NCBI GenBank assembly: GCA_023459335.1
Contig: JAEWUO010000013.1
Span: 47,048 to 111,047, forward strand
Origin: Bacillota bacterium
GTDB lineage: Bacteria > Bacillota > Clostridia > Christensenellales > CAG-138
Reading direction: 5' to 3'
DNA: 64,000 nt
Shown here: positions 31,427 through 62,224 of the stretch, one piece after another
Numbering within the stretch: position 1 is the first letter of the stretch
How the letters are laid out: each line of letters starts with the position of its first letter
The notes under the pieces: generated by a model
The model's input: only the letters and a program-made list of their open reading frames with translations
What the model was told of the DNA's origin: nothing
Databases searched by the model: none
Position numbers and translations under genes: made by a program

Positions 31427-31447
31427 TACTGACGCATTGAACATAGA

Positions 31448-33726: not shown

Positions 33727-33736
33727 GCACGACTCC

Positions 33737-39720: not shown

Positions 39721-39914
39721 CTTTTATATATACCGTCTATGCTTCATTGAAAACTGATCCTTACATAATGATCTTCCAATATGGATTTTCCGGACCGGCA
39801 ACGTTCCTGTATTCTTTATCTCTTAAAATCGAGCCGCAGAATTGTATAAACTATCTGAAATTATATACACTCGTATCACTTCTAGTCAAGGGAGCGCATT
39901 ATAACAAAAGACGC

Positions 39915-40080: not shown

Positions 40081-40425
40081 TAAAACCACAAAAGCAGATA
40101 CAATGAAACGATCGCGGGAGGGGGTTCAAGCTTGAATGCCTAGACTCATATCGACTGATGACCGCCAGTTTTTGAGCAGATCTTTAGGTTGCCTGAAATG
40201 CTAGTCTTATTCTCCCATTAGGAATAAATACAGATACGCGTGATGTATGCCGAATAACGATATCACTTGATATTAACGATTTACTGATTTGCTGCAAAAG
40301 AACCTACTGTACTTATATTAATTAAGGTAAGTGATTGAACACTTTATTCGGTACAATTGGTTACCATTTTGATTTCTTGTGCTTTTTCTGCCCCTTGATA
40401 TACTTCGGCCGCCGCTCGGACAATA

Positions 40426-41301
40426 TTATTGTGCATTCTTACAGATGCGCTCAATTGACACCTCAAAATTGTTACTGTAATCATTCGCCACAAATATCAA
40501 CTTTGCGCCATCAGGGGCAACACCTTCAAAACGTACGTTTTGTTCAACTGTGTTAAAATCATCCACACCTAAAAGCTGTTTTGCGTAATATACCGCAAGT
40601 TGATTTGCTTGCGCACCGCTTAAAGTCCAATCAAGTGAGATAAAAATCGAACCATCCTTGTTATAGTTGATAACATGCAAGGGATCCGGGATTCCAAATT
40701 CATCCAATGTGTCTTGCTTGAGCATAAACTCGTCATAGGATGAAAAGTATTCCATGTCAAGCTGGTATATTTTTGACGCAGTCTCAATATTGGAAAGCTC
40801 AAATCCAATATTAAGCGTGTCATCATCTTCCGCTTCTATGAAACTTAAATAATCACCATCGCCGGTGAATCCTTCGGACATTTTGGAAATCTGCGAACCG
40901 TAACCTTCTTGTAAAACGCGATTAATATTATCAATTACTTCATCTGTTAATGTGCAGTCGTATTGTAAAAAGATAAAATATTCTTCAGATGAAATACTGA
41001 TAGTACCATCCAAAAACCGATCATCCATGCCATCCATCACGTTCGCTTTACCCAACAAATCACGAACGGTTTCATAGGAAAGATCGCGCTTTGGTTCAGG
41101 CGAACATGTTGAAGCAGGCTCCGGCGTTTCAACCGCAGCTGGTGAAATCTCTGGGGAGACGTTCAGATTCTCGACGGTTTTGTTGAGCTGTGCAACTTGA
41201 CTTTCCAGCACGTCAAGACGCGCTAGTATTTCCTGATTACCGCACCCATTTAGTAACAGTACTATAAAGAAACAGAAACAAGGAAGCGCAATCCTTTTCA
41301 T
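40426..41301 (-). CDS. AT-rich lipoprotein, unknown function
   Basis: MKRIALPCFCFFIVLLLNGC has a lipobox (LLNGC). This is followed by a short coiled segment and a ~230-aa globular part. RBS GGAGGAAAAAA precedes the start. Confidence 0.7.
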   Translation of the reverse strand: MKRIALPCFCFFIVLLLNGCGNQEILARLDVLESQVAQLNKTVENLNVSPEISPAAVETPEPASTCSPEPKRDLSYETVRDLLGKANVMDGMDDRFLDGTISISSEEYFIFLQYDCTLTDEVIDNINRVLQEGYGSQISKMSEGFTGDGDYLSFIEAEDDDTLNIGFELSNIETASKIYQLDMEYFSSYDEFMLKQDTLDEFGIPDPLHVINYNKDGSIFISLDWTLSGAQANQLAVYYAKQLLGVDDFNTVEQNVRFEGVAPDGAKLIFVANDYSNNFEVSIERICKNAQ

Positions 41302-41568
41302 TTTTTTCCTCCGGTGGTTTTCTTCTCATAAAAGAGAGCGAAGCATAAGCAGATGCTAATTTCGATAGATTAACTATATTTTAGCCGAGCTCATATTTTT
41401 CGTCAACGCACTGAGCGCATAAACCGCTATCAAAAGACACAGGCATTCATTCGCGGCGGATCTGTTGTATATAAATGATCTGGTAATAAAAATTGTCGAT
41501 AATGGGAGTGTGTTAAAATTTCGGATAGCATGGTAAGAGAGTAAAATTGAGATCAGGAGGAAAGAACC

Positions 41569-41652
41569 ATGCTGAAACAACGAACGCAATACGATGACGA
41601 ATTCAGAAAAACAATGTATGGAGCACTTATAGCAATCATCCTTGCGGTATGA
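41569..41652 (+). pseudogene. Relic of an IS3-family transposase OrfA N-terminus (27 codons)
   Basis: RBS AGGAGG at 41555-41560, then ATG 41569. MLKQRTQYDDEFRKT resembles the conserved IS3/IS911 OrfA start (..KR..Y..EFK..). The frame then degenerates and stops 8 nt before repeat copy B. Confidence 0.4.
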
Positions 41653-41660
41653 TTTTCCGA

Positions 41661-41825
41661 TTTGGCTGCGGTCTGCTTGCGCTTCACGCGGCGCAAGCCC
41701 CCACTCCTGAAAGACTCGCACAGCGAGCTTTTTCCACCTGACGGCGGGCGGAGTTTCAAATCCAGTTATATGCCATGCGGCCAATCAAAAAAGGCAGCCG
41801 ATTATGGCTGCTTTCTTGATTGGTC
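41661..41825. repeat. Repeat copy B (165 nt), abutting the 3' end of tRNA-Pro
   Basis: See copy A. Its last 5 nt (TGGTC) are the complement of the tRNA-Pro 3' GACCA. Its hairpin GCAGCC-ATAATC-GGCTGC followed by CTTTTTTG on the minus strand serves as the tRNA operon terminator. Confidence 0.85.
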
Positions 41826-41897
41826 GGGGTGACTGGATTTGAACCAGCGACCTTTTGGTCCCGAACCAAACGCGCTACCAAACTGCGCTACACCCCG
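41821..41897 (-). tRNA. tRNA-Pro (anticodon CGG), CCA encoded
   Basis: Reverse complement folds as CGGGGTG-TA-GCGC-AGTTTGGTA-GCGC-G-TTTGG-TTCGGGA-CCAAA-AGGTC-GCTGG-TTCAAAT-CCAGT-CACCCCG-A-CCA. This is a full cloverleaf of 77 nt. Confidence 0.95.
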
Positions 41898-41904
41898 AAA
41901 AAAA

Positions 41905-41980
41905 TGGAGCCAATGTGGGGACTCGGACCCCAGACCTGCTGATTACGAATCAGCTGCTCTACCAACTGAGCTACATTGGC
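41905..41980 (-). tRNA. tRNA-Thr (anticodon CGT), CCA encoded; T-loop reads TCCGAGT
   Basis: Reverse complement folds as GCCAATG-TA-GCTC-AGTTGGTA-GAGC-A-GCTGA-TTCGTAA-TCAGC-AGGTC-TGGGG-TCCGAGT-CCCCA-CATTGGC-T-CCA. This is a good cloverleaf, but position 55 is C instead of the usual T. Confidence 0.85.
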
Positions 41981-41995
41981 AACTCGTGCTTTTCA

Positions 41996-42024
41996 ATTAT
42001 ATGCGTCGAGGCAGGGAGTGTCAA
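41996..42024 (-). promoter_or_regulatory. Consensus sigma-70/SigA promoter of the tRNA-Thr/Pro operon
   Basis: On the minus strand, TTGACA-(17 nt)-TATAAT. The -10 ends 15 nt upstream of the tRNA-Thr 5' end. Confidence 0.85.
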
Positions 42025-44557: not shown

Positions 44558-45448
44558 TCAGTATGCAATATCGAGCGCCTCCTTTGCCGGAATATCGAGC
44601 CATTCGGGTTCGGCCAGAATTTTCTTAAACAGGCGGATCGTCTTGGAGAAATAATACCCGTCCGCGATGCGCTCGTCGAGCGTGAACCCGAGGCCAAGCG
44701 CGGGCCTGACGGAAACGCTGCCGTCCGCGCCGTAAAACGGCTGCATGTGTTTTTCGCCGACGATGACGAATACGGAATTCGTGCTCCAGTTGGCAAGATG
44801 GTGATAGCCCGCGTTGAGTTGGATGGAGCCGAGGTTGGAAATGAATACCGTGCTGTTATAAGGATCTTCGTTTGCGAGGTCCTTCGGCATATGCCCGTGC
44901 GCGTCGAGCGTACGAAGGAGAGATACGATCAGCTTTCGCATCCACATCGGGGTTTTGGCGAGCGTATCGAGGATATCCGTCGTGCCGTCCTTCCTGTCGC
45001 TTTTACGGACCGAATACACAAAATCGCGGATCTTGTCGTGGATCATGTCGACCGATGATTTTTCGCTCGCCGGATCATATTTCAATATCATGATCGATTC
45101 GTCCGCGTTGTCCGCAAACGCTTTTTTTACTATAAAGGAAAATGAGATGTGATCGCGGTCGAAATAACGGTTGCCGATGATGAAGCGATTCATGCGCGGG
45201 CGCATTTCGATGGTGCGCGACAGCGCGGCGAGAATGACGTGGAAAAAGGTGTATTTGTATTCCGGGTTCTGCGCGTTCTTCTTTGCCAGATACGTCTCCA
45301 CGGCGCTCAGGTCGACGAGCTCCTGAATGAACGCTTCGTTGTCCGCGCGGTTTGGCAGCATCAGCGGCATGAATACGTGCATCGAGTCGAGATCGCGTAC
45401 AAGCGTCGCGTCGCGGCGGTCGCCGCGGCGTTTCTTATGCAGTTCCAT
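44558..45448 (-). CDS. Stand-alone 2-oxoacid-dehydrogenase E2 / CAT-like acyltransferase catalytic-domain protein (His motif reads DER)
   Basis: 296 aa. Shows family-like blocks (TFFHVILAALSRTIEMRPRMN, FISNLGS). The C-terminal motif LDERIADGYY occupies the place of DHRxxDG. Confidence 0.65.
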   Translation of the reverse strand: MELHKKRRGDRRDATLVRDLDSMHVFMPLMLPNRADNEAFIQELVDLSAVETYLAKKNAQNPEYKYTFFHVILAALSRTIEMRPRMNRFIIGNRYFDRDHISFSFIVKKAFADNADESIMILKYDPASEKSSVDMIHDKIRDFVYSVRKSDRKDGTTDILDTLAKTPMWMRKLIVSLLRTLDAHGHMPKDLANEDPYNSTVFISNLGSIQLNAGYHHLANWSTNSVFVIVGEKHMQPFYGADGSVSVRPALGLGFTLDERIADGYYFSKTIRLFKKILAEPEWLDIPAKEALDIAY

Positions 45449-45724
45449 GTGTATTCCATCCCAATCTTGAAGTATGAGTGCAAATAATGGTTTGAATATA
45501 TCCTTTTCTCAACAAATTGTCAACGCGCTGTTTATTCATTAAATAAATCTAAAAAAATCGAAAATAAATGAATGATGTTTAGCATATTTTTCTTGCGACA
45601 TAAGCTAATAACAAATACAATGAAGATAATAGTATTAAACAATTTTAAGTATTTTTACTCCAAATTCTGTTTGCTTATTAAGTGGTATGCAGACTACCGT
45701 TTCAAGGAATATTTCGGGAGTTGT

Positions 45725-46660
45725 ATGGAAATTTTCACGACAGCTATGTTTAAAAAAATCATGAGTTCTACTCTTGCGATATTCGGAGGACTTGCGATTC
45801 TCCTAGCCAGTAAACCGAAACAGTTACTAATATATATACTTATTATAATTGCCAGTATTGCATTCGTTGTTTTTATTTTTCTAATACCAAATGGAGAATT
45901 ACAACAATCGCTTCGAACAAGAAAGTATTTTTTATTGCGTGTTTCATGTATAGCTGTGGGAATCATAACAAGTGTTCTCGCTTATATTCTCTATCAAGGT
46001 TATTTAGGAATAGGAAATGGAAGAATTGAGAAAGAGAACGAAGTTATAATCAGTGCAACAACTTCGACTCCAACACAAATAACAATAGAGCCAAATTCTC
46101 CTGAGCCCATCACGTTTACACCAACCAACACGGAAGCCCCTACAACTCCAACAAGCTATGCCATGTTTCCTCCGCCTATAATGGAAGCATATCAAGTCGG
46201 GCGTGATTATTTTGATAATGGTAAATTCAATGACGCATATCAATTTTTATTAAAAGCTGCTTTAGCCGGGCATTCAAATGCGCAATTATACACCGGGCGA
46301 TGTCTAAAAGAGGGCGTTAGAGTTGATGAGAATGCTACCTCGGCTGCTGAGTGGTTTACTTTAGCTGCAAATCAAGGAAATGAAGAGGCGCAATATGAAC
46401 TCGGAAGGTGCTATTATGGCGGCAGCGGCGGTGTAGATAAAAATGACCAAGTAGCTTTCTACTGGTTTTCAGCAGCTGCAAGCCGAGGTAGTGGAAATGG
46501 GTTATTATGGACTGGTTATTGTTATCACCATGGATATGGAGTCGAACAGAATTACGATTTAGCAAAAGAGAACTATATTGCAGCAGGTGAAAAGGGACAA
46601 GCATATGCTCAAAAACGCCTCGAAGAATTACAGAACGACATACAAAACGAAGACAAATGA
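45725..46660 (+). CDS. AT-rich membrane-anchored Sel1/TPR-like repeat protein
   Basis: RBS GGGAG, then ATG 45725. Three N-terminal TM helices and a Thr/Pro linker. At least three Sel1-type repeats follow (GHSNAQLYTGRCLKEGVRVDENATSAAEWF; GNEEAQYELGRCYYGG; GNGLLWTGYCYHHGYGVEQNYDLAKENY). Confidence 0.75.
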   Translation: MEIFTTAMFKKIMSSTLAIFGGLAILLASKPKQLLIYILIIIASIAFVVFIFLIPNGELQQSLRTRKYFLLRVSCIAVGIITSVLAYILYQGYLGIGNGRIEKENEVIISATTSTPTQITIEPNSPEPITFTPTNTEAPTTPTSYAMFPPPIMEAYQVGRDYFDNGKFNDAYQFLLKAALAGHSNAQLYTGRCLKEGVRVDENATSAAEWFTLAANQGNEEAQYELGRCYYGGSGGVDKNDQVAFYWFSAAASRGSGNGLLWTGYCYHHGYGVEQNYDLAKENYIAAGEKGQAYAQKRLEELQNDIQNEDK

Positions 46661-46792
46661 CTGATTGATTAACATATGAATTATTTAACAACAAAATTTC
46701 ATAAAATTAAATAAAGAAAGCTCAAAAAGCATCAGATTACACAACCTAATTCGGCAGATATAAACGATTGTTCTGTTGATCCGCCCGTATCA

Positions 46793-46821
46793 TTGACAAT
46801 TCCGGCGTATGCCGATATACT
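46793..46821 (+). promoter_or_regulatory. Near-consensus sigma-70 promoter at the right edge of the AT-rich insert
   Basis: TTGACA (46793-46798), 17-nt spacer, TATACT (46816-46821). Confidence 0.6.
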
Positions 46822-46851
46822 TTTTTTATATATGACCGTGAGAGGACTAAA

Positions 46852-46941
46852 ATGAACGACGAAGAGAGCGACAGTACCGGCGACCACGAACACAATCGCA
46901 TGAGAGAATGTTTTTTAAAGCACATAATCTGTCTCTGCTGA
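46852..46941 (+). CDS. Candidate 29-codon micro-ORF (MNDEESDSTGDHEHNRMRECFLKHIICLC)
   Basis: RBS GAGAGGA lies 6-7 nt upstream of ATG 46852, about 25 nt downstream of the predicted TSS. It is too short for composition statistics, so coding status is unproven. Confidence 0.25.
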   Translation: MNDEESDSTGDHEHNRMRECFLKHIICLC

Positions 46942-47077
46942 ATTGCGGACACAGGTTATGCTTTTTCTATTTCAGGGAGGCATTTTTGGAATAGTACGGG
47001 CGTAATCGCCCGGCGGACTACAGACTGAACAAAGACGCGGCCGAAAAAACACGCGGCCGAATTAACGGAGAAATGGA

Positions 47078-48478: not shown

Positions 48479-50875
48479 TTATTCGATCCCGACCACGTCG
48501 TCGTCCAGCACGACCGCGACGAGCATGTTGCCCTTGCCCGCGCGCGGTTCGATGCGCACTTCCGCGGTGTTGATCAGCGTTTTTCCGCCGTGCCGCTGGA
48601 GAAGCGTGATCGTCCTCGGTTCGGTGAGAACAGCGACGGCCGCGATGCAGGTGCCGTTCGCGCCGTTCTTCTTGAGATCGAAGGTTTTAAGGCCCTTGCC
48701 GTTTCGGCCCTGCAGGTCGTAGTCGAACATCGGGGAGCGCTTGCCGAACCCCTTGTCCGTAATGGTCAGCACCTCGGCTTCCTCCGGCACGAGAGCGGCG
48801 TAGAGCACCTCGTCGCCCTTCTCCAGTTTGACGCACTTGACGCCGCCGGAAACGCGGCCCATCGCGGGCACCGTATCCGCCGCGAAGCGGATGCTCATGC
48901 CCTGCTTCGTGACCAGCAGAATCGGCTTCGGCTCATATTTTTCGATTGCGAGCACGCGGTCCTTGTCCCGCAGGGAGGCGGCGGCGGTGCGCTTGACGCG
49001 AAGGCGGTATTCGGCGGCCGGCGTGCGCTTCACGTTCCCGTCCCGCAGGTAGAAGAGGTAATCTCCCTCTTCTTCGTCCGGGAAAAGCGCAATGATCTTT
49101 TCGTTCTTCTCAAACGGCAGCAGGGAGGCGAGGTTCGCCGCTCGAACCGTCGCGCGCGTCTCCGGAATCTCATCCGCACCGATGGAGAGCAACGCGCCCT
49201 GGTCGGTAAAGAGGCGGACGCGCTGGTTGGAGCGCGTATCGAGCGTGAAGAGCGGCTTGTCCTCCGAGATGGCGGCGAGCGAAAACGCCTTCGTCGGCAT
49301 CCGGCGGATTTTAAGCCCTTCGCAGACGCAGACCGTCACGTCCTCGACGAACGCGAGGTCCTCCGCTTCATCGACGGCCACTTCGTCCGAAGCGACGAAC
49401 GTCGTCCGGCGGGAGATTGCGATCTGTTCCCGGATTTCAGTGAGTTCCTTTTTAATCAGCGTGATCAGTTTTTTTTCACTCGCGAGGATGCTCCGCAGCT
49501 CTTCGATGAGCTTGACTACTTCCGCGTATTCTTTGCGGATCGTGACGAGCTCCATATTGGTCAGCCGCTGGAGCCGCAAATCGAGGATGGCCTGCGCCTG
49601 AATCTCGCTGAGCGAGAAGGTCTTCATTAACCCTTCGCGCGCTTCTTTCGGAGACTTGCTGGCGCGTATGAGCGCGATGACCGCGTCGAGGTTGTCGACG
49701 GCGATCATGAGCCCCGCTAAAATATGCTCCCTGCGCAGCGCCGCGTCGAGCTCGAACTGCGTGCGGCGGGTCACCACGTCCCGTTGGTGGCGGATGTAAT
49801 GCGCGATGATCTGCTTGAGGTTCATCTGCTGCGGCTTGCCGCCCGCGATGGCGACCATGTTGACGCCGAACGTCATCTGCATGTCGGAATACTTGAACAG
49901 GTATTGGAGGATGCGCTCCGGGTCGCCGTCTTTCTTGACCTCGATGACCGCGCGCATGCCGGTGCGGTCGCTTTCGTCGCGAATGTCCGCGATGCCGGAG
50001 AACAGCGCCTTTTTCTCCTGACTGACCGCGAGGATTTTCTCCAGCATGTTCGCCTTGTTCACCTGATAGGGCAGCTCGGTGACGACGATGAGCGTCTTGC
50101 CGTTTTTCTGCTCCTCGAAGTGCGTCTTGGCGCGCATGTAGATCTTGCCGCGGCCGGTGCGGTAGGCAAGCTCCACTTCCGAGGATTCGAGGATGAATCC
50201 GCCCGTGGGGAAGTCCGGCGCGGGGATGATTTTCATGAGCTCTTCGAGCGGGATCCGCGGGTTTTCCATGACAGCGATGACCGCGTTGATCGCCTCGACG
50301 GGGTTGTGCGGAGGGATATTGGTGGCGAGGCCCACAGCGATGCCGGAGGCTCCGTTGACAAGCAGGTTCGGGAAACGCCCCGGCAGAAGATCCGGCTCCT
50401 TTAACGTATCGTCAAAGTTAAACGAAAACCCGACGGTGTCTTTTTCGATATCGCGCAGCAGCTGCATGGCGGCGTCCGTCATGCGCGCCTCGGTGTATCG
50501 CATCGCCGCCGCGCTGTCCCCGTCCACGCTGCCGAAGTTGCCGTGCCCGTCCACGAGCGGCACGCACATGTTGTACGGCTGTGCCATGCGCACCATCGCG
50601 TCATAGACGGAGCTGTCCCCGTGCGGATGGTATTTGCCGAGACAGTCGCCGACGATGCGCGCGCTCTTCCGGTGCGGTTTGTCCGGCGAAAGCCCCAGTT
50701 CAAGCATGGTATAGAGAATGCGCCGCTGCACCGGTTTTAAGCCGTCCTCCACGCGCGGCAGGGCGCGCTCGAGGATGACGTGCTCGGCGTAAGGCATCAT
50801 GGACTGGTGCATGACCTCGTCCATGTTGCGCTGAATGATCTTTTCGAGTTTGAGCTGTTCGGGCGTTTTAACCAT
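48479..50875 (-). CDS. parC: Type IIA topoisomerase subunit A (ParC/GrlA-like; possibly a second GyrA)
   Basis: 798 aa. Contains [19 protein letters not shown], the active-site AAMRYTE and a beta-pinwheel CTD. I saw no GyrA-box at the start of the CTD, and the gene order is B-A away from any dnaA/recF context, so topo IV is favoured. Confidence 0.8.
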
Positions 50876-50916
50876 ATGTACGTTCCTTATATCTCAGTCA
50901 ATTCTTGATCGTTTCG

Positions 50917-52872
<1,956 letters not shown>

Positions 52873-53150
52873 AACGACTCCCATATAAAATATGATTCAT
52901 TGGCGGATGCGCGGGCGGTGAAAACCGCCTGCAAGCGCAAATATCTTGATGGAACAATATTTCGCCGTGCTTTGCGGCGCTGACGGTGATTTCGAAAGAA
53001 AAGCACCATATCTGGCGCGTCAACTTATATAGTATACCATACTTTGTGGCGGGCAGGAACCCATGCGGGCGCCGGTTTCTGCGGAGAAACATGCAAACAA
53101 ACGTTTATTTTCAAAAAATTCAAAAAAAACAGGTAAAAAAGTCATGAAAG

Positions 53151-53247: not shown

Positions 53248-53694
53248 ATGCTGATCGGTTCATTTGAACATATGCTGGATGCAAAAGGCCGCGTGTTCAT
53301 TCCCGCCAAATGGAGAGAAACGCTCGGCGACACGCTCGTGATCACACTGGGCCTTCTGGAGACGCAGACGGCGAAGTGCCTCTCCGGCATGTCCGTCGAA
53401 GAGTGGGAACGCTTTTCCCATAAGCTCTCCGCGCTGCCGGTGACCGATACGAGCGGACAGGCGATCAGAAGGAAGCTTTACTCCATGGCCGCCGCCTGCG
53501 AGATCGACAAGCAGGGGCGCATCCTGATCCCCGCGCAGCTCAGGGACATGACGGGGCTCGTCAAGGATGCGACGCTGATCGGCGTAGGCGACCGCGTGGA
53601 GATCTGGAATCCGGAGACGCTCGCGGGGTACAACGCCCTTTGCGAGGAAAACTATGGCGACGCGCTCGCGCATCTCGCGGCGCTCGGCATATGA
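53248..53694 (+). CDS. mraZ: Transcriptional regulator MraZ
   Basis: MLIGSFEHMLDAKGRVFIPAKWR and a second KQGRILIPAQLR half give the duplicated SpoVT/AbrB-like fold. Confidence 0.95.
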   Translation: MLIGSFEHMLDAKGRVFIPAKWRETLGDTLVITLGLLETQTAKCLSGMSVEEWERFSHKLSALPVTDTSGQAIRRKLYSMAAACEIDKQGRILIPAQLRDMTGLVKDATLIGVGDRVEIWNPETLAGYNALCEENYGDALAHLAALGI

Positions 53695-54632
53695 GCGGAC
53701 AGTATTCGCACATTCCGGTGCTGCTGCGCGAGACGCTGGAGCTTCTCTCGCCCGAGCGCGGCGGCATCTTCGTAGACGGAACGCTCGGCGGCGGAGGCCA
53801 TGCCGAAGCGGTTCTGACCCGCTTGCCGGAAAGCGGCAGGCTCATTGGCATCGACAGGGACTGGGAAGCCGTGCACGCGGCGGGGGACCGGCTGAAAACA
53901 TATGGCAGCCGTTTTACCGCGTTGCACGGCAACTTTTTTGATATGAGCGCGCTTCTTCTGGAAATCGGCGTGACCGAGGTGAACGGAATCCTGCTCGACC
54001 TGGGCGTTTCCAGCTATCAGCTGGATGCGCAGGCGAGGGGGTTTTCGTATAAGGCCGATTCTCCGCTGGACATGCGCATGGATCAGACCGCAGCGCTCTC
54101 CGCGCGGGAAGTGGTAAACAATTATTCCGAAGAGGAGCTCGCCCGCGTGATCTGGACGTACGGGGAGGAGCGGTTCAGCCGGAGGATTGCGGAGCGAATT
54201 TGTCGGGCGCGTGAACAATATCCCATCGAAACGACGCTTCAGCTGGCGCAGATCGTTCGGGACGCGATCCCGGCCAAGTACAGAAACGAGCCGCAGCATC
54301 CCGCGCGGCGGACTTTCCAGGCGCTGCGCATCGAAGTAAACGGCGAATTGAAAGGTCTCGATCAGGCGGTGGAGGATGCCTGCGATCTGTTGCAAAAAGG
54401 CGGAAGACTGTGTATAATTACATTTCATTCACTGGAGGATCGCATCGTCAAACAGGCATTTCGCAGGTTTGAACATCCCTGCACCTGCCCGCCGTCCGCA
54501 CCGGTCTGCGTCTGCGGAAAGGAGCCGAAAGCGAAGATCCTCACAAAGAAACCGCTGACTGCCTCCCCCGAGGAGGAAGCGCGCAACTCCCGTTCGACCA
54601 GCGCAAAGCTCCGCTGCATGGAAAAGATCTAG
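53691..54632 (+). CDS. rsmH: 16S rRNA (cytosine1402-N4)-methyltransferase
   Basis: HIPVLLRETLELL, DGTLGGGGHA, DLGVSSYQLD and FHSLEDRIVK. The ATG at 53691 overlaps the mraZ stop. Confidence 0.95.
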   Translation: MSGQYSHIPVLLRETLELLSPERGGIFVDGTLGGGGHAEAVLTRLPESGRLIGIDRDWEAVHAAGDRLKTYGSRFTALHGNFFDMSALLLEIGVTEVNGILLDLGVSSYQLDAQARGFSYKADSPLDMRMDQTAALSAREVVNNYSEEELARVIWTYGEERFSRRIAERICRAREQYPIETTLQLAQIVRDAIPAKYRNEPQHPARRTFQALRIEVNGELKGLDQAVEDACDLLQKGGRLCIITFHSLEDRIVKQAFRRFEHPCTCPPSAPVCVCGKEPKAKILTKKPLTASPEEEARNSRSTSAKLRCMEKI

Positions 54633-54701: not shown

Positions 54702-55283
54702 TTGGATATTCGTTTTGAGGACGATCGCAAAAAGGGCAGGGCTCCGACGACGCGGCTGAATCTGCCGAATCAGCAGGAGGAGGAAGAGCAGGCGGGACGC
54801 GACGGCCGCCCGCATTCGGGACGGCGTTCCGTGCGTGAGCCGGGCGTGCGTGTGGAGAAGCCGGAGATGACGTCCATGGGGCGCATAGGCCTGATCATCA
54901 GCGGGTTTCTATTCGCCGGCATGGTGCTCTTTACGCTGTCGGGATATGAGCGCATTTCGCGCGCGTATGCGGACATCAACGCGCTCAATGACGAGATCGA
55001 ATCCACAGATCTGCGGATCAACGAACTGGACGTGCAGATCGAGTGCGCGGTGACCATTCAGGAAGCGCAGAAAGTGGCGGAAGCGTACGGCATGCGCTAT
55101 CCCGAGAAAAGCCAGTATGTAAGAATCGGCGATCCGCTGCCGTTTAGCAACGAGGAACCATCCGCAACGGACAGCGGAAACACGACCACAGAAACGCCGG
55201 CGGCGCCGGAAACGACACCGGAAACGTCGCCGGGACCAGCGGATACAACAGGCGGGGGGGAACAACCGTCTGCGGGCGGTTGA
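54702..55283 (+). CDS. ftsL: FtsL-like cell-division protein (single TM + coiled coil) with charged N-terminal and P/T-rich C-terminal extensions
   Basis: Position after rsmH. TM segment IGLIISGFLFAGMVLFTL, then a coiled coil INALNDEIESTDLRINELDVQIE. The track start is TTG 54702. Internal ATGs (MTSMGRIG) are alternative starts. Confidence 0.7.
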   Translation: MDIRFEDDRKKGRAPTTRLNLPNQQEEEEQAGRDGRPHSGRRSVREPGVRVEKPEMTSMGRIGLIISGFLFAGMVLFTLSGYERISRAYADINALNDEIESTDLRINELDVQIECAVTIQEAQKVAEAYGMRYPEKSQYVRIGDPLPFSNEEPSATDSGNTTTETPAAPETTPETSPGPADTTGGGEQPSAGG

Positions 55284-55307: not shown

Positions 55308-57509
55308 ATGGCAAAGACGACGACTCCCGCGCCGAAGATCAAACGCAAACTCGTTCTCCTCATGGTGTTTTCCGGCCTCCTGCTTCTGCTTCTGGCACTG
55401 CGCCTCTCGCAGGTGATGATCGTGCAGGGGCCCGAACTGAAAACCAAGGCGGAAACGCAATGGACTCGGCGGCAGAATCTCGCCGCGCAGCGCGGCAAGA
55501 TCACCGACCGAAACGGACTCGTGCTTGCGCAGAGCGGAACGGCTTATCGCGTGCTCGCGAACCCGCCCTCCATCGCGGCGGACGACCGCGTGCGCATCGC
55601 GACCGAGGTTTCCGATATTCTCGGACTCAACTACGATTATGTGCTCGAGCGCATCTCCGATCCGGACCGTCTGCAGGTGCAGCTCAAACGGCAGGTGGAG
55701 AGCTCGGTCATCGACCAGCTTGAAGCGCTGCAGCTGGGCAACGGAATCACCTACACCACCGACATGAAGCGCTACTACCCCTTCGGCCAGCTCTTCACGC
55801 AGCTGATCGGCTTTACCGGAATCGAGACGGAGGGGCAGACAGGGCTTGAGGCGGAGTACAACTCCTACCTCGCGGGCGTCGCCGGACGGCTCGTCATCGA
55901 AGTGGACCGAAAGAACAACCCGCTTTCCTACGGCGAAGAATACTATGTCGCGCCGACGGAAGGTTACAATATGGGAATCACGGCGGATTCCGTGGCCCAG
56001 AATTACCTGGAGAAGTACGTCCAGCAATGCTACGAGATTAACCGCGCAAGCACCGTTTCCGGTCTCATCATGGACCCGAACACGGGCGAAATCCTCGCCA
56101 TCAGCACGTATCCTTCCTTTGATCTGAACAATCCACCGCGCGACATGGTCACCGAACTCATGTCGATGTCCCGCGCGCGAATCGTGACGGACACATACGA
56201 AGCGGGCTCGATGTTCGACATGGTTACGGCCGCAGCGGCGATCGATTCCGGCGCCGCCGAGCAGGGCAGCACCTATCGCTGCTCGACCAACGGCGCTTAT
56301 AAAATCTTCCGACTGGAGAAGGTCCGCTGCTGGTATACGGCGGGGCACGGCAGCGAGACGCTGTCCGAAGCGCTCGGCAACTCCTGCAACGTCGCCATGA
56401 TGGATATGGCGCTCGCGACCGGCGTGGATAAATTTTACGACTATATTTACGCGTTTGGCTTTAACGAAAAGACGGACTGCGGAATCCCAAGCGAGGACAC
56501 GGGCGAGGTCATCCACAGAAAATACATCCGCGACAGCGACCTCGCGCGCATTTCGTTCGGCGAGAACATCACCACCACCGCGATCCAGATGGCGAACGCC
56601 TTCTGCGCGATCATCAACGGCGGAACGCTCATGCAGCCCTATGTCGTGGACAATATCACGGCGCCGGACGGCACGGTGATCCTGAAAAACGAGCCGACGA
56701 TCCTCCGGCGCGTCATCAGCTCCAACACATCCGCAACGATGCGCACCCTGCTGCAGTATGTCGCGGAAAAAGGCAACGGCAGCAACGCGCAGGTGCCGAA
56801 TTACACCGTCGGCGGCATTACGGGGGTATCCAGAAAATTTGAGGAAGACGGCGTAACCCCGTCCCGCACGCGTGTGGTTGCGTCGTACATCGGTTTCCTG
56901 CCGGTCAACGATCCGCAGCTCGTGTGCATGATCATGATCGACGAACCGCAGGTACCCTATATGGAAGCCAGCAGTTCCGCTGGATACTGGGTATCCAGGA
57001 TATTTTCGGACCTTGTGCAGTATTACGGCATTCTGCCGGATACCACAACAAGCTTGACTTCGGTTCCGAACGTAGTCGGCCTGACCGCGAAAGAAGCGGC
57101 TTACGAGCTCGCAAAAGCAGGGTTTACGACGTATACGGTCCCGACCGAGGATACCGCGATGGTCGTTACGCAGTATCCCGCGGCGGAAGAAGAGGTTGCT
57201 TCCGGGTCGGTCGTCATCCTCTATACGACGATGACCACGTTTAACGACGATGGGTTATACAAGGAGCAGGTCTCCGTTCCGAACGTCGTCGGCCGCCGAA
57301 GACAGGATGCATTTGACAAACTCACGGAACTTGGGCTTTTCCTGAGCTTCGACAAGACGCAGTGCACGGGGCAGATCGATACGCAGTCCATCGAAGAGGG
57401 TACTATGGTCGATCCCGGGACGACGATTTACGTCACGTTCCCTTCGCCGACGCCGACGGAGGAACCCACGCCAACACCGGTACCCGGAGCTCCGACGCCG
57501 GCGCCGTAA
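55308..57509 (+). CDS. Class B penicillin-binding protein (SpoVD/FtsI position) with two PASTA repeats; catalytic motifs degenerate
   Basis: 733 aa with a TM anchor, dimerisation domain, transpeptidase fold and two PASTA repeats (SVPNVVG...). Box 1 reads SMFD (not SxxK), box 2 reads SCN, and box 3 reads ITG (not KTG). See findings. Confidence 0.9.
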   Translation: MAKTTTPAPKIKRKLVLLMVFSGLLLLLLALRLSQVMIVQGPELKTKAETQWTRRQNLAAQRGKITDRNGLVLAQSGTAYRVLANPPSIAADDRVRIATEVSDILGLNYDYVLERISDPDRLQVQLKRQVESSVIDQLEALQLGNGITYTTDMKRYYPFGQLFTQLIGFTGIETEGQTGLEAEYNSYLAGVAGRLVIEVDRKNNPLSYGEEYYVAPTEGYNMGITADSVAQNYLEKYVQQCYEINRASTVSGLIMDPNTGEILAISTYPSFDLNNPPRDMVTELMSMSRARIVTDTYEAGSMFDMVTAAAAIDSGAAEQGSTYRCSTNGAYKIFRLEKVRCWYTAGHGSETLSEALGNSCNVAMMDMALATGVDKFYDYIYAFGFNEKTDCGIPSEDTGEVIHRKYIRDSDLARISFGENITTTAIQMANAFCAIINGGTLMQPYVVDNITAPDGTVILKNEPTILRRVISSNTSATMRTLLQYVAEKGNGSNAQVPNYTVGGITGVSRKFEEDGVTPSRTRVVASYIGFLPVNDPQLVCMIMIDEPQVPYMEASSSAGYWVSRIFSDLVQYYGILPDTTTSLTSVPNVVGLTAKEAAYELAKAGFTTYTVPTEDTAMVVTQYPAAEEEVASGSVVILYTTMTTFNDDGLYKEQVSVPNVVGRRRQDAFDKLTELGLFLSFDKTQCTGQIDTQSIEEGTMVDPGTTIYVTFPSPTPTEEPTPTPVPGAPTPAP

Positions 57510-59048: not shown

Positions 59049-59180
59049 GATTTCGAACATGGATTTATCCGCATCCGCCGCTATACCGACCGGTATTAAG
59101 GCGGGTGCGTTTTATATGTATGCGAAAAGAAGAGGAAATTGGGATTGTCCGCCGCGGGTTTTCGGGGGTATAATACCGGT

Positions 59181-60218
59181 ATGTTTACAATCGTACTGAC
59201 CGCGCTGACGGCGTTTTGCATCGTCTGGCTTCTTGGCCCGCTGCTGATTCCGATGCTGCAGCGGCTGACATCCGAGAATAAGCCTCACGAGACCGAGCCG
59301 GAACCGCAGCCGCAGCCGCAGAAGAAGAAACAGCAGCAGGCGACGAAAAGACCGCCCGCACCGACGATGGGCGGCATAATGATCCTACTTGCGGTCGCAG
59401 TGGCTACGCTTGTTTTCGGGCTGGATGGAATGGAGTTTGCGCTGCCCGCGCTGGTCGCGATGCTCGCTCTGGGCGTGCTGGGGTTTATAGACGATTTTAC
59501 CAAGACGCGCGGCGCCGAAGGGGAGGGTCTGAAACGCTATCAGAAACTTCTCGTCGAACTGATCGTAGCGGGGATCGTAGCCGTCTGGGCGTATCGCTCG
59601 CCTTTGATCGGTTCCTCGCTTTATCTGCCCGTCTCCGGCTCAGATTGGGATATCGGCGTGTGGTACATCCCGCTGTCGGCGCTCGTCGTGCTCGGCATGA
59701 CGAACGCGGCGCAGATGACCGACGGCATGGATGGTCTTGTGACCGGCGTGAGCATGGTATACTCGCTGTTTATGATCGCCATACTTGCTGCGATGGCGCT
59801 GACGGCCAATCAGGCGGGCGAACTGCTGCTGGGGGGTAATCTCACCGGAACGGCGGTGTTCTCCGCGGCCGTCGCGGGCGCCTGCGTCGGGTTTTTACGT
59901 TATAACACTTATCCCGCGCGCGTGCAGCCCGGCTCCACCGGCGCGCTTGCGCTGGGTGGCGCGGTGGCGATGCTTGCGCTTCTCAGCCGCTCGATCCTGC
60001 TGCTGCCGCTGACGGGGTTCTGCTTCCTTGCGAGCATGGGTTCGGTGGTCCTGCAGGCGTTCAGCCGCAGGCGGGAGGATGGAAAGCGGCTTTTTCGCGC
60101 CGTGCCGATCCACCGGCACTTCGAACAGGCGGGGCACCCCGCGCCGCAGATCGCTTCAATGTACGCCATTGTCACGGCGGTGCTCTGCGCGATCTGCCTG
60201 CTGCCGTATCTCAAATAA
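59181..60218 (+). CDS. mraY: MraY-family phospho-MurNAc-pentapeptide translocase homologue, atypical at invariant positions
   Basis: 10-TM PNPT fold in the canonical murE-mraY-murD position, with PTMGG, GFIDDF and MTDGMDGL present. VQPGSTGA replaces VFMGD(T/V)GS, HRH replaces HHH, and a low-complexity PQ/K-rich loop replaces the GQxIRxxGPxxHxxK loop. I start at ATG 59181. Confidence 0.85.
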   Translation: MFTIVLTALTAFCIVWLLGPLLIPMLQRLTSENKPHETEPEPQPQPQKKKQQQATKRPPAPTMGGIMILLAVAVATLVFGLDGMEFALPALVAMLALGVLGFIDDFTKTRGAEGEGLKRYQKLLVELIVAGIVAVWAYRSPLIGSSLYLPVSGSDWDIGVWYIPLSALVVLGMTNAAQMTDGMDGLVTGVSMVYSLFMIAILAAMALTANQAGELLLGGNLTGTAVFSAAVAGACVGFLRYNTYPARVQPGSTGALALGGAVAMLALLSRSILLLPLTGFCFLASMGSVVLQAFSRRREDGKRLFRAVPIHRHFEQAGHPAPQIASMYAIVTAVLCAICLLPYLK

Positions 60219-60265: not shown

Positions 60266-61618
60266 ATGGAACAACGTAAAAAAGCGCTGATCGTCGGCAT
60301 GGCGAAGAGCGGAGTCGGCGCGGCCAAACTGCTTGCGCGCGGCGGATGGGACGTGATCGTCAACGACAAAAAGGCAGAAATCGCCGGACTGAGCGAGCAG
60401 CTTGCCGGCGTGTCCGTCGAGTGGCATTTGGGCGAAGAGCCGCAGAGCCTGCTAAACGGCGTATCGCTGGTCGTGATCAGCCCCATCATCCCGATGACGG
60501 CGCAGTTCGTAAAGGACGCGCAGGCGCGCGGCATCGAGGTCATCGGCGAGATCGAGCTAGGGTACCGTTACAGCTACGGAGAATTCGTCTGTATCACCGG
60601 AACGAACGGCAAGACGACCTGCACCGCGCTGACCGGCGAAATGTTCAAAAACGGCGGACGGCATACGTTCGTGCTTGGCAACATCGGAGTGGCGATCTCC
60701 GAGCATGCGCTGGACACGCGCGCTGGCGACGTGGTCGTCGCCGAAACCGCAGCGCTGCAGCTGGAAGGAAACGTACGCTTTCATGCGCGCGCGGCGGGGG
60801 TTTGCAATATTACGGAAGACCATCTCGACCACTTCGGAACGATGGAAAACTACATTGCCGCGAAGTGCAAGATTTTCGATCACCAGACGTCGGAGGATAT
60901 CGCGGTGCTGAACTACGACGACGCGGTGGTGCGCGGCATGGCGCGGCTGACTCCCGCGCGCGTCTATTATTTTTCTCGGAAAAGCGAGGTTCCGCGAGGG
61001 CTGTTTCTGCGCGGGGATGAGGTGATTTACCGAGACGAAGAGGGAGAGTACGCGCTCATCCGCGCGGAGGAGATCAAAATCCCCGGCGGGCACAACCTCG
61101 AAAACGCGATGCTCAGTTCTCTGCTCGCGCTTGGTATGGGCATTTCTCCCGATGCGGTGCGCGAAACGCTGAAGACATTTCCCGGCGTGGAACACCGGAT
61201 CGAATTCGTGCGGGAGTTTGGCGGCGTCCGCTATATCAACGACTCCAAGGGCACCAACCCCGACTCGACGATCAAGGCGATTCAGGCGATGACGCGCCCG
61301 ACCGTGCTCATCCTCGGCGGCTACGACAAGCACAGCGACTTCCACGAGCTTTTCGAGCATTTTCACGGCAGCAGGCTCAAGGCCATCGTCGTGCTCGGAG
61401 AAACAAAACAGAAAATTCTCGATACCGCGCGGGACACGGGGTATCTGGGATATTGCCACGCGACGGGTACGTTTGAGGACGCGGTTTCCTGCGCTCGCAT
61501 GATGGCGGCTCCCGGCGATGCGGTGCTCCTTTCGCCCGCCTGCGCAAGCTGGGATATGTTCGATAACTTTGAACAGCGTGGCAGGGTATTTAAGCAGATC
61601 GTGAATCAATTCCGATAA
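60266..61618 (+). CDS. murD: UDP-N-acetylmuramoylalanine--D-glutamate ligase
   Basis: ITGTNGKTT, NITEDHLDHF, AAKCKIF, EHRIEFV, NDSKGTN and SPACASWDMF..FEQRG. Confidence 0.95.
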   Translation: MEQRKKALIVGMAKSGVGAAKLLARGGWDVIVNDKKAEIAGLSEQLAGVSVEWHLGEEPQSLLNGVSLVVISPIIPMTAQFVKDAQARGIEVIGEIELGYRYSYGEFVCITGTNGKTTCTALTGEMFKNGGRHTFVLGNIGVAISEHALDTRAGDVVVAETAALQLEGNVRFHARAAGVCNITEDHLDHFGTMENYIAAKCKIFDHQTSEDIAVLNYDDAVVRGMARLTPARVYYFSRKSEVPRGLFLRGDEVIYRDEEGEYALIRAEEIKIPGGHNLENAMLSSLLALGMGISPDAVRETLKTFPGVEHRIEFVREFGGVRYINDSKGTNPDSTIKAIQAMTRPTVLILGGYDKHSDFHELFEHFHGSRLKAIVVLGETKQKILDTARDTGYLGYCHATGTFEDAVSCARMMAAPGDAVLLSPACASWDMFDNFEQRGRVFKQIVNQFR

Positions 61619-61622
61619 GTAT

Positions 61623-61656
61623 AACAACAACGCCCGCAAGGGCGTTGTTGTTTTAT
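61623..61656. terminator. Bidirectional terminator ending the dcw segment
   Basis: Perfect 13-bp stem AACAACAACGCCC-GCAA-GGGCGTTGTTGTT followed by TTAT. Confidence 0.8.
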
Positions 61657-61663
61657 CGCGCGT

Positions 61664-62224
61664 TTATTCGTTGATAATGTCGATCTGGCAGGGTTTCATG
61701 GCGTTCAGCGCGTTGATGTGCCCCTCCGGCGTCGCGCCCGCGCAGGCCGCCGCATCCACGACGATCTTCGCCTCGGGGTAAAACGCCTTGACGAGCAGCG
61801 CGTTGCTGATGACGCAGATGTCGGTGCAGAGGCCGACGAGCGTGACTTCCTCCGGTTCTTCGCCGCCGAGCATCTCGTGGATGCGCATCGGAAGGCTCAC
61901 GCCGCCGAAGGTGTCCTTCGCGATCATGTGCTGTTCGTCCGCGGCGTTTTTGTGCATGAGCGCCATCCAGACGGAAGCGTTCGGCGCCCAGCCGTCGGTT
62001 CCCGCGATGCAGTGCTTGACGGGGAGTTTCTTTCCTTCCTGCGTTTCGAGGTATTTCTCGGTATGCGTGTCCAGCGTGTACAGGATCAGCCCGTCGAAGC
62101 CGAGGATGCGCTGTACGACCGCTTCGACGATCGCCTGCGCTTCCTTAGTACCGAGCGAACCTGTGATGAAGTCGTTCTGCATGTCCACGACGACGAGGAC
62201 TTTTTTGTTCAGCGGCTGTTCCAT
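61664..62224 (-). CDS. Isochorismatase-family cysteine hydrolase (nicotinamidase PncA-like)
   Basis: VVVDMQNDF, and GLCTDICV containing the catalytic Cys. 186 aa. Confidence 0.85.
   Translation of the reverse strand: MEQPLNKKVLVVVDMQNDFITGSLGTKEAQAIVEAVVQRILGFDGLILYTLDTHTEKYLETQEGKKLPVKHCIAGTDGWAPNASVWMALMHKNAADEQHMIAKDTFGGVSLPMRIHEMLGGEEPEEVTLVGLCTDICVISNALLVKAFYPEAKIVVDAAACAGATPEGHINALNAMKPCQIDIINE

Follow-up and report, generated by a model that had tools for sequence, protein, structure and literature searches.

A class B penicillin-binding protein without its two catalytic lysines in the dcw cluster of a clade of uncultured Clostridia

The 64-kb stretch of DNA analysed here (the window) carries a truncated dcw cluster, and within it a gene for a penicillin-binding protein of class B (bPBP) whose transpeptidase motifs are degenerate. 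The genes of the cluster are as follows.

53248-53694, forward strand: mraZ, an ORF at a conserved position in related loci; the equivalent in one of these (L087) matches Pfam MraZ
53640-54632, forward strand: rsmH (mraW), from a synteny family present in 68 loci; the L087 equivalent matches Methyltransf_5
54702-55283, forward strand: small membrane protein resembling FtsL, an assignment from position and architecture only; a conserved family fills this place in 63 loci
55308-57509, forward strand: class B PBP gene with degenerate transpeptidase motifs, an ORF of 733 aa
57615-59048, forward strand: murE-type Mur ligase; the identical neighbour in locus L082 matches Pfam Mur_ligase, Mur_ligase_M and Mur_ligase_C
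59139-60218, forward strand: mraY; the L082 neighbour matches Glycos_transf_4
60266-61618, forward strand: murD, with which the truncated cluster ends, assigned from the ORF and synteny comparison

Translation of rsmH probably starts downstream of the TTG given for the ORF. The translated FtsL-like ORF has a transmembrane segment, a stretch that resembles a coiled coil and a tail rich in Pro and Thr, and the protein has no Pfam match. The order mraZ, rsmH, FtsL-like ORF, PBP, murE, mraY and murD is that of a dcw-encoded divisome bPBP, in agreement with a preliminary description of this DNA that placed the PBP in the FtsI/SpoVD slot between ftsL and murE. No ftsW, murG, ftsQ, ftsA or ftsZ follows murD in the cluster, and the genes beyond it, for an isochorismatase and a SpoU methylase, lie on the opposite strand. 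In phmmer searches with PBP and FtsW queries against every ORF in the window and in 83 loci, each locus had one PBP and none had a second, and SEDS genes were found neither in the window nor in the dcw loci of the clade that shares the degenerate PBP. Redundancy through another bPBP or a SEDS gene close by was ruled out by these results.

The PBP gene encodes the following domains.

55338-55424, forward strand: N-terminal transmembrane anchor (approximately aa 11-39), the hydrophobic stretch KLVLLMVFSGLLLLLLALRL, a single long helix in the AF2 model
55482-55925, forward strand: pedestal, or PBP dimerisation domain, aa 59-206 (Pfam PF03717 PBP_dimer, E 3e-21)
56064-56987, forward strand: transpeptidase (TP)-fold domain, aa 253-560, predicted to be catalytically dead (Pfam PF00905, E 1.3e-56)
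57060-57443, forward strand: two PASTA repeats, approximately aa 585-640 and 654-712 (Pfam PF03793, two stretches, E 1.9e-19)

Anchor, PF03717 pedestal and PF00905 fold place the protein among the class B PBPs, and the two C-terminal repeats place it with the PASTA-domain bPBPs of the PBP2x/PBP2b/SpoVD type. The AF2 model has a mean pLDDT of 85.2, with most of the TP core above 90, and its predicted fold superposes on Clostridioides difficile SpoVD (7rcz) with a TM-score of 0.89 and on Pseudomonas aeruginosa PBP3 with TM-scores of 0.85-0.88 (Foldseek). The complete bPBP architecture claimed in the preliminary description is borne out by the Pfam domains, the modelled helix at 11-39 and the Foldseek matches. 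It is through the pedestal that characterised bPBPs contact and activate SEDS proteins. Proteins of this kind are today named automatically as SpoVD, transpeptidase or 'PASTA domain-containing protein'.

The catalytic motifs, and a possible metal site beside them, were located as follows.

56208-56219, forward strand: box 1, S301-M-F-D304 in place of SxxK, read from the DNA and aligned to S-T-F-K of 7rcz
56382-56390, forward strand: box 2, S359-C360-N361 (SxN), kept; the DNA is tcc tgc aac
56817-56825, forward strand: box 3, I504-T-G in place of KTG, read from the DNA and aligned to K-T-G of 7rcz
56280-56387, forward strand: putative Zn2+-binding tetrad C325, C341, H347 and C360, of the kind described for C. 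difficile SpoVD (PMC9334274)

The DNA at 56199-56219 reads gaa gcg ggc tcg atg ttc gac (E-A-G-S301-M-F-D304) and that at 56811-56828 reads ggc ggc att acg ggg gta (G-G-I504-T-G-V). The best PDB match of the protein is SpoVD 7rcz (phmmer, E 7.6e-94), and in this alignment 'tyeaGSMFDmvtaaaa' stands opposite 'tyepGSTFKlitsssa' and 'vGGITGvsrk' opposite 'lGGKTGtaqk'; Burkholderia and Neisseria PBPs gave the same motif alignment. D304 and I504 therefore occupy exactly the positions of the two catalytic lysines. A regex scan of the whole protein found no other SxxK in the TP domain, the sole match being SFDK at 680 in the second PASTA repeat, and no K[TS]G anywhere. The PBP thus has box 2 of a DD-transpeptidase and lacks boxes 1 and 3. 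The preliminary description had read all three motifs in this way, had placed the replaced residues at the lysine positions and had found no alternative SxxK, and each of these points held. Because both active-site lysines are gone, acyl-enzyme formation is predicted to be no longer possible and the transpeptidase activity of the PBP to be lost; an S/T-x-x-D site could conceivably retain some activity or have an altered one. The four residues of the tetrad (codons 56280-56282, 56328-56330, 56346-56348 and 56385-56387) match by sequence the motif of the Zn2+-binding serine PBPs, which consists of two Cys/Asp, a His and a Cys at the X of SxN (Sacco et al. 2022, PMC9334274).

A sequencing or assembly error, or decay in a single strain, could also produce such motifs, but nothing speaks for it beyond a general expectation that lysines needed for catalysis are never lost. 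The ORF is intact, and the codons GAC (304) and ATT (504) are each two base changes away from AAA/AAG. Two other assemblies carry the identical protein, and 31 species-level genomes of uncultured Christensenellales-like Clostridia lack both lysines, several of them closed long-read chromosomes (e.g. OY776633.1, OW818651.1 and OY762278.1); the same losses are found in approximately 85 protein clusters. Assembly error and private mutation were ruled out by the identical proteins and the 31-genome distribution, and decay of a pseudogene by dN/dS values far below 1 (given below), leaving an artefact with next to no probability; the earlier view that a single-base miscall could not account for the motifs gains from the same evidence. 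In the comparison with orthologues suggested in the preliminary description, K304 and K504 were found in 47/47 intact relatives and in 0/31 members of the degenerate clade.

The genomes with the degenerate PBP were monophyletic in an independent tree of MurE, MraY and MurD (support 100/100), with the intact-motif locus L025 as sister to the clade and L027 next. A tree of the PBP outside its TP domain left the clade unresolved (38/100), and it is the neighbouring genes and the TP domain that show the clade to be monophyletic. The motifs were lost once, anciently, in the common ancestor of approximately 31 species. Across these species position 304 is Asp in 27, Ser in 2, Glu in 1 and Asn in 1; position 504 is Ile in 22, Val in 5 and Phe in 4; and position 505 is Thr, Ser or Gly. 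The nucleophile position 301 is Ser in 20, Thr in 8 and Asp in 3, so that the preliminary statement that the nucleophile was kept stands for the window protein (S301) but not for the clade. In two members (L022 and L029) Ser and Asp appear to have been swapped to give D-M-F-S, with the pair kept. SxN is kept in 24-26 of the 31 and lost in 5-7, with SSS or SNS in the basal subclade and SSS, SNS, ACN, GCN, SCG and SCY as the variants across the clade; the Zn tetrad is complete in 26/31 and was likewise lost in the basal subclade. Such drift of the nucleophile and of SxN is the expected signature once selection for catalysis ends.

Loss of the motifs is not confined to this clade. Among 150 representatives of the same protein family, nine others are dead by the same reading, at no fewer than six separate places in the tree, and their residues at the motif positions include G, E, N, S and H. 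Three of them have enough sequence context to place the PBP in the same dcw slot (ftsL-like ORF, PBP, murE, mraY), and on the two longest of these contigs the cluster runs on through murD to ftsW. The preliminary description had called an inactive divisome PBP an unusual natural state; the degenerate motifs are real, but the state is less singular than that, being ancient, clade-wide and recurrent in related lineages.

To whichever function the protein is put, it remains constrained. In close pairs with unsaturated dS, dN/dS was 0.03-0.1 in every domain of the PBP, and 0.03-0.09 in the TP domain alone. Median pN for pedestal, TP domain and PASTA repeats was 0.10, 0.15 and 0.21 in the clade versus 0.23, 0.20 and 0.34 in the intact sister grade; the pedestal has the lowest pN of the clade's domains, and constraint has shifted to it from the TP domain. 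We also followed 191 positions that are at least 95% conserved in the 47 intact relatives. The clade has kept 53 of 55 in the pedestal region (aa 1-240), 21 of 22 in the PASTA repeats and 66 of 111 in the TP domain, where the losses cluster at boxes 1, 2 and 3 and the elements adjacent to them. The whole PBP is under strong purifying selection, and decay is confined to the active-site region. Within that region new residues have been fixed, F364M, T507V, A508S, Q509R, Y511F and G554A in 31/31 and K304D in 27/31.

We propose that the PBP is a pseudoenzyme, retained because of a non-catalytic job in the division machinery, where it would activate or scaffold FtsW while another enzyme forms the cross-links, and we give this reading a probability of about 0.6. 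The transmembrane helix and pedestal would bind the SEDS glycan polymerase FtsW and switch it on allosterically, and the PBP may also connect FtsW to FtsL/FtsQ-type regulators. The PASTA repeats, together with the shell of the transpeptidase domain, which is still folded, could serve in localisation, as a docking surface, or both. Septal peptidoglycan cross-links would come from a different enzyme, possibly a further bPBP, a PBP of class A or an L,D-transpeptidase, and we infer that such a compensating enzyme exists. Purifying selection, conservation of the pedestal and PASTA repeats and the retention of an intact FtsW in clade genomes all favour a scaffolding or SEDS-activating role. There is experimental precedent, since TP-dead PBP2b of Bacillus subtilis, PbpB of Enterococcus faecalis and SpoVD S311A of C. 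difficile stay functional, and under the favoured model the bPBP activates its SEDS partner by structural means and other enzymes cross-link (PMC12713402, PMC12516126). The tolerance of TP-dead PBP2B in B. subtilis, mentioned in the preliminary description, is thus documented.

In this clade ftsW has been relocated out of the dcw cluster. We found ftsW-ftsQ at a conserved relocated locus in four related clade genomes (L029, L023, L015 and L002), one of which (L002) belongs to the SMFD/ITG subclade of the window protein itself; the window's own genome is represented here by 64 kb only. The search went through cluster representatives, with L015 and L002 added from cluster membership and contig look-ups, and the lack of other closed chromosomes in the representative-only lists is not evidence of loss. 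The clade FtsW scores 376.8 against the NCBIfam FtsW equivalog cutoff of 337.5, retains the GAKRW, QPSE, ESDFIF and PTTGQALPFISAGGSS motifs and keeps 113 of 118 invariant columns, and judged from these features it looks catalytically intact in the four genomes. Since ftsW does not adjoin the PBP gene in the clade, genomic linkage gives their pairing no support here; that the degenerate PBP physically pairs with FtsW is what we infer.

The assignment of the PBP as a sporulation protein has to be weighed at this point. If it were a SpoVD orthologue and not the divisome PBP of vegetative cells, catalysis could have become dispensable after cortex synthesis was lost or changed, leaving a residual role in, for example, asymmetric septation. 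The top NCBIfam model is the SpoVD equivalog TIGR02214 (spoVD_pbp, E 1.3e-145), the top PDB match is C. difficile SpoVD and the SpoVD-type Cys/Cys/His/Cys tetrad is present; the dcw cluster of C. difficile encodes the pair SpoVD/SpoVE, and there asymmetric division can do without SpoVD catalysis but cortex synthesis cannot (PMC12713402). However, the score of 486.3 bits is well under the curated TIGR02214 cutoff of 688, and the clade SEDS protein, which passes as FtsW and is paired with ftsQ, falls short of the SpoVE cutoff (363 versus 448.8). Related dcw clusters extend into ftsQ, ftsA and ftsZ, no sporulation gene was seen in the 64-kb window, and strong purifying selection over 31 species suggests a core function. 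We consider this sporulation-type reading very improbable.

The dN/dS of the TP domain and its refixed residues are left unexplained by a passive scaffold, and they hint that the former active site has taken on a new function. Under a second alternative the TP domain has been neofunctionalised and itself carries the selected function, as a non-covalent ligand-binding or regulatory pocket or as a new Ser/Thr-Asp catalytic centre; the pocket might sense stem peptide, lipid II or, through the putative Zn site, redox state. Besides the constraint and the six substitutions common to all 31 species, the replacement of Lys304 by Asp in most of them rather than by free variation, the retention of the Zn tetrad beside the pocket in 26/31 and the D-M-F-S swap that preserves the Ser/Asp pair are all in line with it. 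Yet the residues that would be key to such a function vary (S/T/D at 301, D/E/S/N at 304, I/V/F at 504 and T/S/G at 505), box 2 and the Zn site were lost in the basal subclade, and no database match suggests a ligand or an activity. The independent dead lineages also differ widely at the motif positions, which argues against convergence on a new chemistry. We regard neofunctionalisation as unlikely, though not so unlikely as to be set aside. A specific form of it, in which the dead TP domain was rebuilt as a receptor that binds stem peptide or lipid II non-covalently and/or senses redox state through the Zn site, and that gates the polymerase activity of FtsW, is distinctly unlikely; if true, substrate sensing through the former active site would control septal wall synthesis in the clade, and all cross-linking would be left to other enzymes, perhaps L,D-transpeptidases insensitive to beta-lactams.

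Beta-lactams have their classic targets in the class B PBPs. It is actively debated whether what these proteins essentially contribute to division is cross-linking or structural activation of the SEDS polymerase, and to date the question has been approached only through engineered catalytic mutants of three Firmicutes. If the PBP is the pseudoenzyme that we propose, a clade of approximately 31 species and at least six further lineages constitute a natural experiment indicating that the non-catalytic role alone suffices to maintain the protein, most likely the natural version of a state so far made only in laboratory mutants. The pattern of conservation would then serve as a map, with the residues kept mattering for the non-catalytic role and those released mattering only for catalysis. 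Septal cross-linking in the clade is predicted to be performed by another enzyme class, and the clade PBP would be undetectable by beta-lactam-based probes and of no use as a drug target. The case also calls for caution in the automatic annotation of such PBPs.

Our searches of the literature for a naturally dead bPBP yielded only engineered mutants, ftsI pseudogenes with frameshifts and unrelated pseudoenzymes of the PBP fold, MipB among them. The best match by sequence and structure is C. difficile SpoVD, which has the same order of anchor, pedestal, TP domain and PASTA repeats as the window PBP and shares with it the dcw position beside murE and the Cys/Cys/His/Cys tetrad. In contrast to the window PBP, which is without both lysines, SpoVD has S-T-F-K, SxN and K-T-G intact, is acylated by ampicillin and needs its catalysis for cortex synthesis; the SEDS partner in the window clade is classed as FtsW, not SpoVE. 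FtsI/PBP3 of the FtsWIQBL core divisome (P. aeruginosa, 8bh1) has what the model suggests is the same fold (TM-score 0.81-0.88), and an FtsL-like protein, FtsW and FtsQ are all encoded in the window clade. FtsI/PBP3 is, however, an active DD-transpeptidase and beta-lactam target without the PASTA repeats found here; the window PBP scores 168.3 bits against the FtsI subfamily model NF011685, below the curated cutoff of 737, and its gene does not adjoin ftsW.

Catalytically dead cell-wall folds kept as activators of a partner are known in division. The LytM factors EnvC and NlpD are degenerate homologues of cell-wall enzymes that activate amidases; the concept is the same, whereas fold and partner differ from those of the window PBP. 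MipB of P. aeruginosa has a beta-lactamase/PBP (penicilloyl-serine-transferase) fold that has no SXXK, is degenerate in motifs 2 and 3 as well, and is reused as a non-catalytic sensor, but it is a class C beta-lactamase-like outer-membrane lipoprotein and not a class B PBP (PMC10936184). It has neither pedestal nor PASTA repeats and is unrelated to SEDS proteins or division. The closest functional analogues are the engineered dead bPBPs (PBP2b S to A, PbpB and SpoVD S311A), in which septation goes on with an inactive bPBP, the protein and hence its structural, SEDS-activating role are needed, and another enzyme supplies the cross-links (PMC12713402, PMC12516126). Those are point mutants of the nucleophile, with an active site that is otherwise wild-type, and they require a known back-up PBP. 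In the window clade, in contrast, inactivation is natural, ancient and fixed, and it struck the two lysines first, after which approximately 45 formerly invariant positions of the TP domain were remodelled.

The DNA reading in the preliminary description, according to which this class B PBP (bPBP) lacks both catalytic lysines, was borne out: the SxxK, SxN and KTG boxes read E-A-G-S-M-F-D (56199-56219), S-C-N (56382-56390) and G-G-I-T-G-V (56811-56828). Pfam assigned PBP_dimer (residues 59-206), Transpeptidase (253-560) and two PASTA repeats. A phmmer alignment with C. difficile SpoVD, whose structure is solved (7rcz; E 7.6e-94), placed S-M-F-D opposite S-T-F-K and G-I-T-G opposite G-K-T-G, and two further solved PBPs gave the identical motif pairing. 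The claim that no alternative motif exists also held, with no second SxxK in the transpeptidase (TP) domain and no K[T/S]G in the whole protein. Two of the three motifs that define an active DD-transpeptidase are lacking. An AlphaFold2 model from 47 homologues was confident (pLDDT 85.2, pTM 0.76) and superposed on SpoVD with a TM of 0.89 and on P. aeruginosa PBP3 with a TM of 0.85-0.88. Based on the motif alignments and these superpositions, the protein is predicted to have a complete bPBP fold in which change is limited to catalytic residues. It is a class B PBP family member by architecture and fold, and the dcw bPBP by position.

Features of the PBP gene (window positions)
55308-57509, plus strand: class B PBP gene, an ORF of 733 aa
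56280-56387: putative Zn2+-binding tetrad C325, C341, H347, C360, adjoining the dead active site
56397-56399, 56826-56840 and 56967-56969: re-fixed residues 364, 507-511 and 554

Orthologues indicated that the lysine loss is neither an error nor private to one genome. The identical 733-aa protein is found in two more independent metagenome assemblies. In a search space of 5.8 billion proteins, both lysines were missing in ~85 of the best 120 clusters, at identities from 100% down to ~70%, and intact relatives among these 120 (E-P-G-S-I-F-K / N-S-C-N-C / G-G-K-T-G-T-A) begin at ~71% identity. A scan of species-representative genomes yielded 80 loci, every one from uncultured MAGs (several closed chromosomes among them, those of the dead form including OY776633.1, OW818651.1, OY762290.1, OY762962.1, OY771363.1, OY764017.1 and OY762278.1), with genome titles of Christensenellaceae, Christensenella sp., 'uncultured Oscillospiraceae' or Clostridia. 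The dead form was present in 31 species-level genomes, the window counted, and in a tree of the neighbouring MurE+MraY+MurD (1,232 columns, 62 taxa) these genomes were monophyletic in 100/100 bootstraps, with intact-motif L025 (CAZIQO01) as sister of this dead clade, followed by L027. We argue monophyly from these markers because the PBP tree from the non-TP domains was too weakly resolved, recovering the dead clade in 38/100 only. The loss of both lysines was a single event, in the dead clade's common ancestor.

Within the 31 genomes the former catalytic positions vary. At the nucleophile position, 20 genomes have S, 8 have T and 3 have D; residue 304 is mostly D (27 genomes), with S in two, E in one and N in one; at 504, I predominates (22), ahead of V (5) and F (4). 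SxN is altered to SSS, SNS, ACN, GCN, SCG or SCY in some genomes. At L022, L029 and L023, the S-M-F-D of box 1 is replaced by D-M-F-S or D-M-F-N, an apparent Ser/Asp swap between helix positions i and i+3. The gene as a whole is under strong constraint, and dN/dS is 0.03-0.1 in every domain for close pairs with unsaturated dS. That the gene is an artefact or a decaying pseudogene is refuted by the identical protein in other assemblies, the 31 dead genomes, the low dN/dS and the MurE+MraY+MurD monophyly, and we give it practically no weight.

Median pN for pedestal, TP and PASTA is 0.23/0.20/0.34 in the intact sister grade, where TP is the most conserved, and 0.10/0.15/0.21 in the dead clade, where the pedestal is. 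The contrast is sharpest in a site-wise test, which was based on 191 positions at least 95% conserved over 47 intact relatives. The dead clade retains 53/55 of such positions in the TM anchor and pedestal and 21/22 in PASTA, with 66/111 kept in TP; the 45 TP losses group at box 1 (299-314), box 2 (358-365), 413-427, 485-491, box 3 (504-511) and 523-562. Six residues invariant in the 47 intact relatives have been re-fixed to a new residue in 31/31 dead-clade genomes (F364M, T507V, A508S, Q509R, Y511F and G554A), pointing to newly arisen constraints at or close to the former active site. The SpoVD-type Zn tetrad consists of Cys/Cys/His plus the Cys of SxN (PMC9334274, Sacco et al. 2022). The window protein and 26/31 dead-clade genomes carry its residues, which were lost only in one basal subclade (L022, L023, L024, L029 and L038), together with SxN and the nucleophile.

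Loss of catalysis has also recurred outside the dead clade. A search with the window protein covered 1.84 billion representatives at 50% identity, and the best 150 were scored for motifs; 132 had all three, and nine others beyond the window's own cluster lacked the box-1 lysine, boxes 2 and 3 being gone too in most of them.

The nine dead representatives (loci include L084, L085 and L087)
P0241
P0242
P0255
P0258
P0283
P0295
P0330
P0344
P0347

Replacement residues are different in each of the nine, which fall at six or more separate places in the tree, with intact proteins between them. They are confined to the region of the family nearest the window protein, with none among the ~110 more distant representatives. 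Four were looked up, and the three with enough context all sit at the equivalent dcw position: downstream of P0242 come murE, mraY, murD, ftsW, ftsQ and ftsA, P0255 is followed by murE and mraY, and the P0344 locus runs mraZ, rsmH, an unannotated ORF, PBP, murE, mraY, murD, ftsW, an unannotated ORF, ftsA and ftsZ. A further PBP, at L049 (10004-12271), shows partial, independent decay (S-A-F-K / D-C-D / K-P-G). With at least six separate dead lineages, catalysis loss is a repeated evolutionary outcome for the dcw bPBP in this Clostridia group. The continuing constraint and the re-fixed residues could mean that the former active site gained a new binding or catalytic function, but the key positions vary both within the dead clade and among the independent dead lineages, and we regard this as unlikely.

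In the window, the order is gyrA/gyrB (minus strand), mraZ, rsmH, an FtsL-like ORF, PBP, murE, mraY, murD and then unrelated minus-strand genes.

Upstream flank of the dcw cluster (window positions)
48479-52884, minus strand: gyrA and gyrB, directly upstream of mraZ and divergent from it

The gyrA/gyrB arrangement is conserved throughout the dead clade, as well as in many intact relatives, and murF is missing between murE and mraY in the window. In distant intact-motif relatives the cluster runs murD, ftsW, murA, ftsQ, ftsA; for the dead clade, as for L025, L027 and L031, which are its nearest intact sisters, it ends at murD (window 60266-61700). Because these sisters also end at murD, the break-up of the cluster predates the loss of catalysis. 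Neither the window nor the sequence flanking any dead-clade dcw locus yielded a second PBP or a SEDS gene, and the Pfam survey of the window gave no further wall synthase. The dead-clade ftsW-ftsQ pair lies at a relocated, conserved locus (periplasmic-binding-protein gene, alpha/beta-hydrolase, ftsW, ftsQ), found in the genomes of L029, L023, L015 (assembly JAYFNY01) and L002 (assembly JAAYUE01), the last with a PBP (S-M-F-D / S-C-N / I-T-G) of the same subclade as the window protein. The relocation observation covers L081, L088, L094, L095 and L096, with an ISL3 transposase after the pair in L081. Dead-clade FtsW passed the NCBIfam FtsW equivalog cutoff (376.8 vs 337.5) and failed that of SpoVE. 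It retains the SEDS signatures GAKRW, QPSE, ESDFIF and PTTGQALPFISAGGSS, as well as 113/118 columns invariant in FtsW of intact-PBP genomes. Judged from sequence, the FtsW polymerase appears to be preserved in four dead-clade genomes while the transpeptidase site of its presumed cognate bPBP has been dismantled. The FtsW assignment also bears on a reading of the protein as a sporulation-type SpoVD for which catalysis is no longer needed. SpoVD is indeed its best model and best PDB match, but it scores 486 against the SpoVD NCBIfam cutoff of 688 (and is also under the FtsI subfamily cutoff), and the presumed SEDS partner is classed as FtsW and sits beside ftsQ, leaving this explanation improbable.

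The window carries further features away from the dcw cluster.

Other features (window positions)
13389-19373: glycogen metabolism genes (Pfam survey)
27696-29924 and 36182-37783, minus strand: two GGDEF diguanylate cyclases with large sensor regions
45572-46660: Sel1-repeat protein, in a low-GC stretch

The glycogen genes comprise a branching-enzyme-like gene (CBM48 + alpha-amylase), a nucleotidyl-transferase with hexapeptide domain (GlgC/D-like) and a starch/glycogen synthase. One cyclase sensor has three PAS domains and GAF, the other a Cache/HK-sensor-like domain. GC is 39-47% at ~30000-42000 and 45000-47000, compared with 55-60% elsewhere, and the low-GC stretches, which hold large ORFs of 469, 440, 507 and 291 aa without Pfam match, may have been horizontally acquired.

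In penicilloyl-serine transferases the serine owes its activation to the SxxK lysine, and the substrate carboxylate is bound by the lysine of KTG. As both lysines were lost, and then the serine itself in some members, DD-transpeptidation by the dead-clade PBP would be implausible. The preliminary description had noted that TP-dead B. subtilis PBP2B is tolerated, and the literature agrees: TP-dead forms of B. subtilis PBP2b and E. faecalis PbpB, and the S311A variant of C. difficile SpoVD, remain able to support septation (PMC12713402, PMC12516126). In the model favoured for such mutants, the bPBP switches on its SEDS glycosyltransferase by a structural, allosteric effect, and cross-links come from another bPBP, a class A PBP or L,D-transpeptidases (PMC12713402, PMC12516126). 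The polymerase activity of FtsW requires its cognate bPBP (bioRxiv 10.1101/358663). Without catalysis, the window protein could serve as FtsW activator or divisome scaffold. Because pedestal and PASTA are preserved, the active site has been released and FtsW is preserved, we consider a non-catalytic, FtsW-activating or divisome-scaffolding bPBP the probable reading (roughly 60%).

The literature searched contained no account of a natural missense-dead dcw bPBP; a survey of morphogenetic synthases from 2025 covers ftsI pseudogenes created by frameshift as well as non-canonical architectures, and no such protein. A dead dcw bPBP would surprise specialists, and the dead clade together with the independent losses offers the SEDS-bPBP field a separation-of-function system that is natural and replicated. 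The finding builds on an existing concept and founds no new one, its functional side being inferential. On the favoured reading, the window protein would work like the engineered TP-dead divisome bPBPs, and it is conceptually similar to MipB, a PBP-fold pseudoenzyme, and to the degenerate LytM activators.
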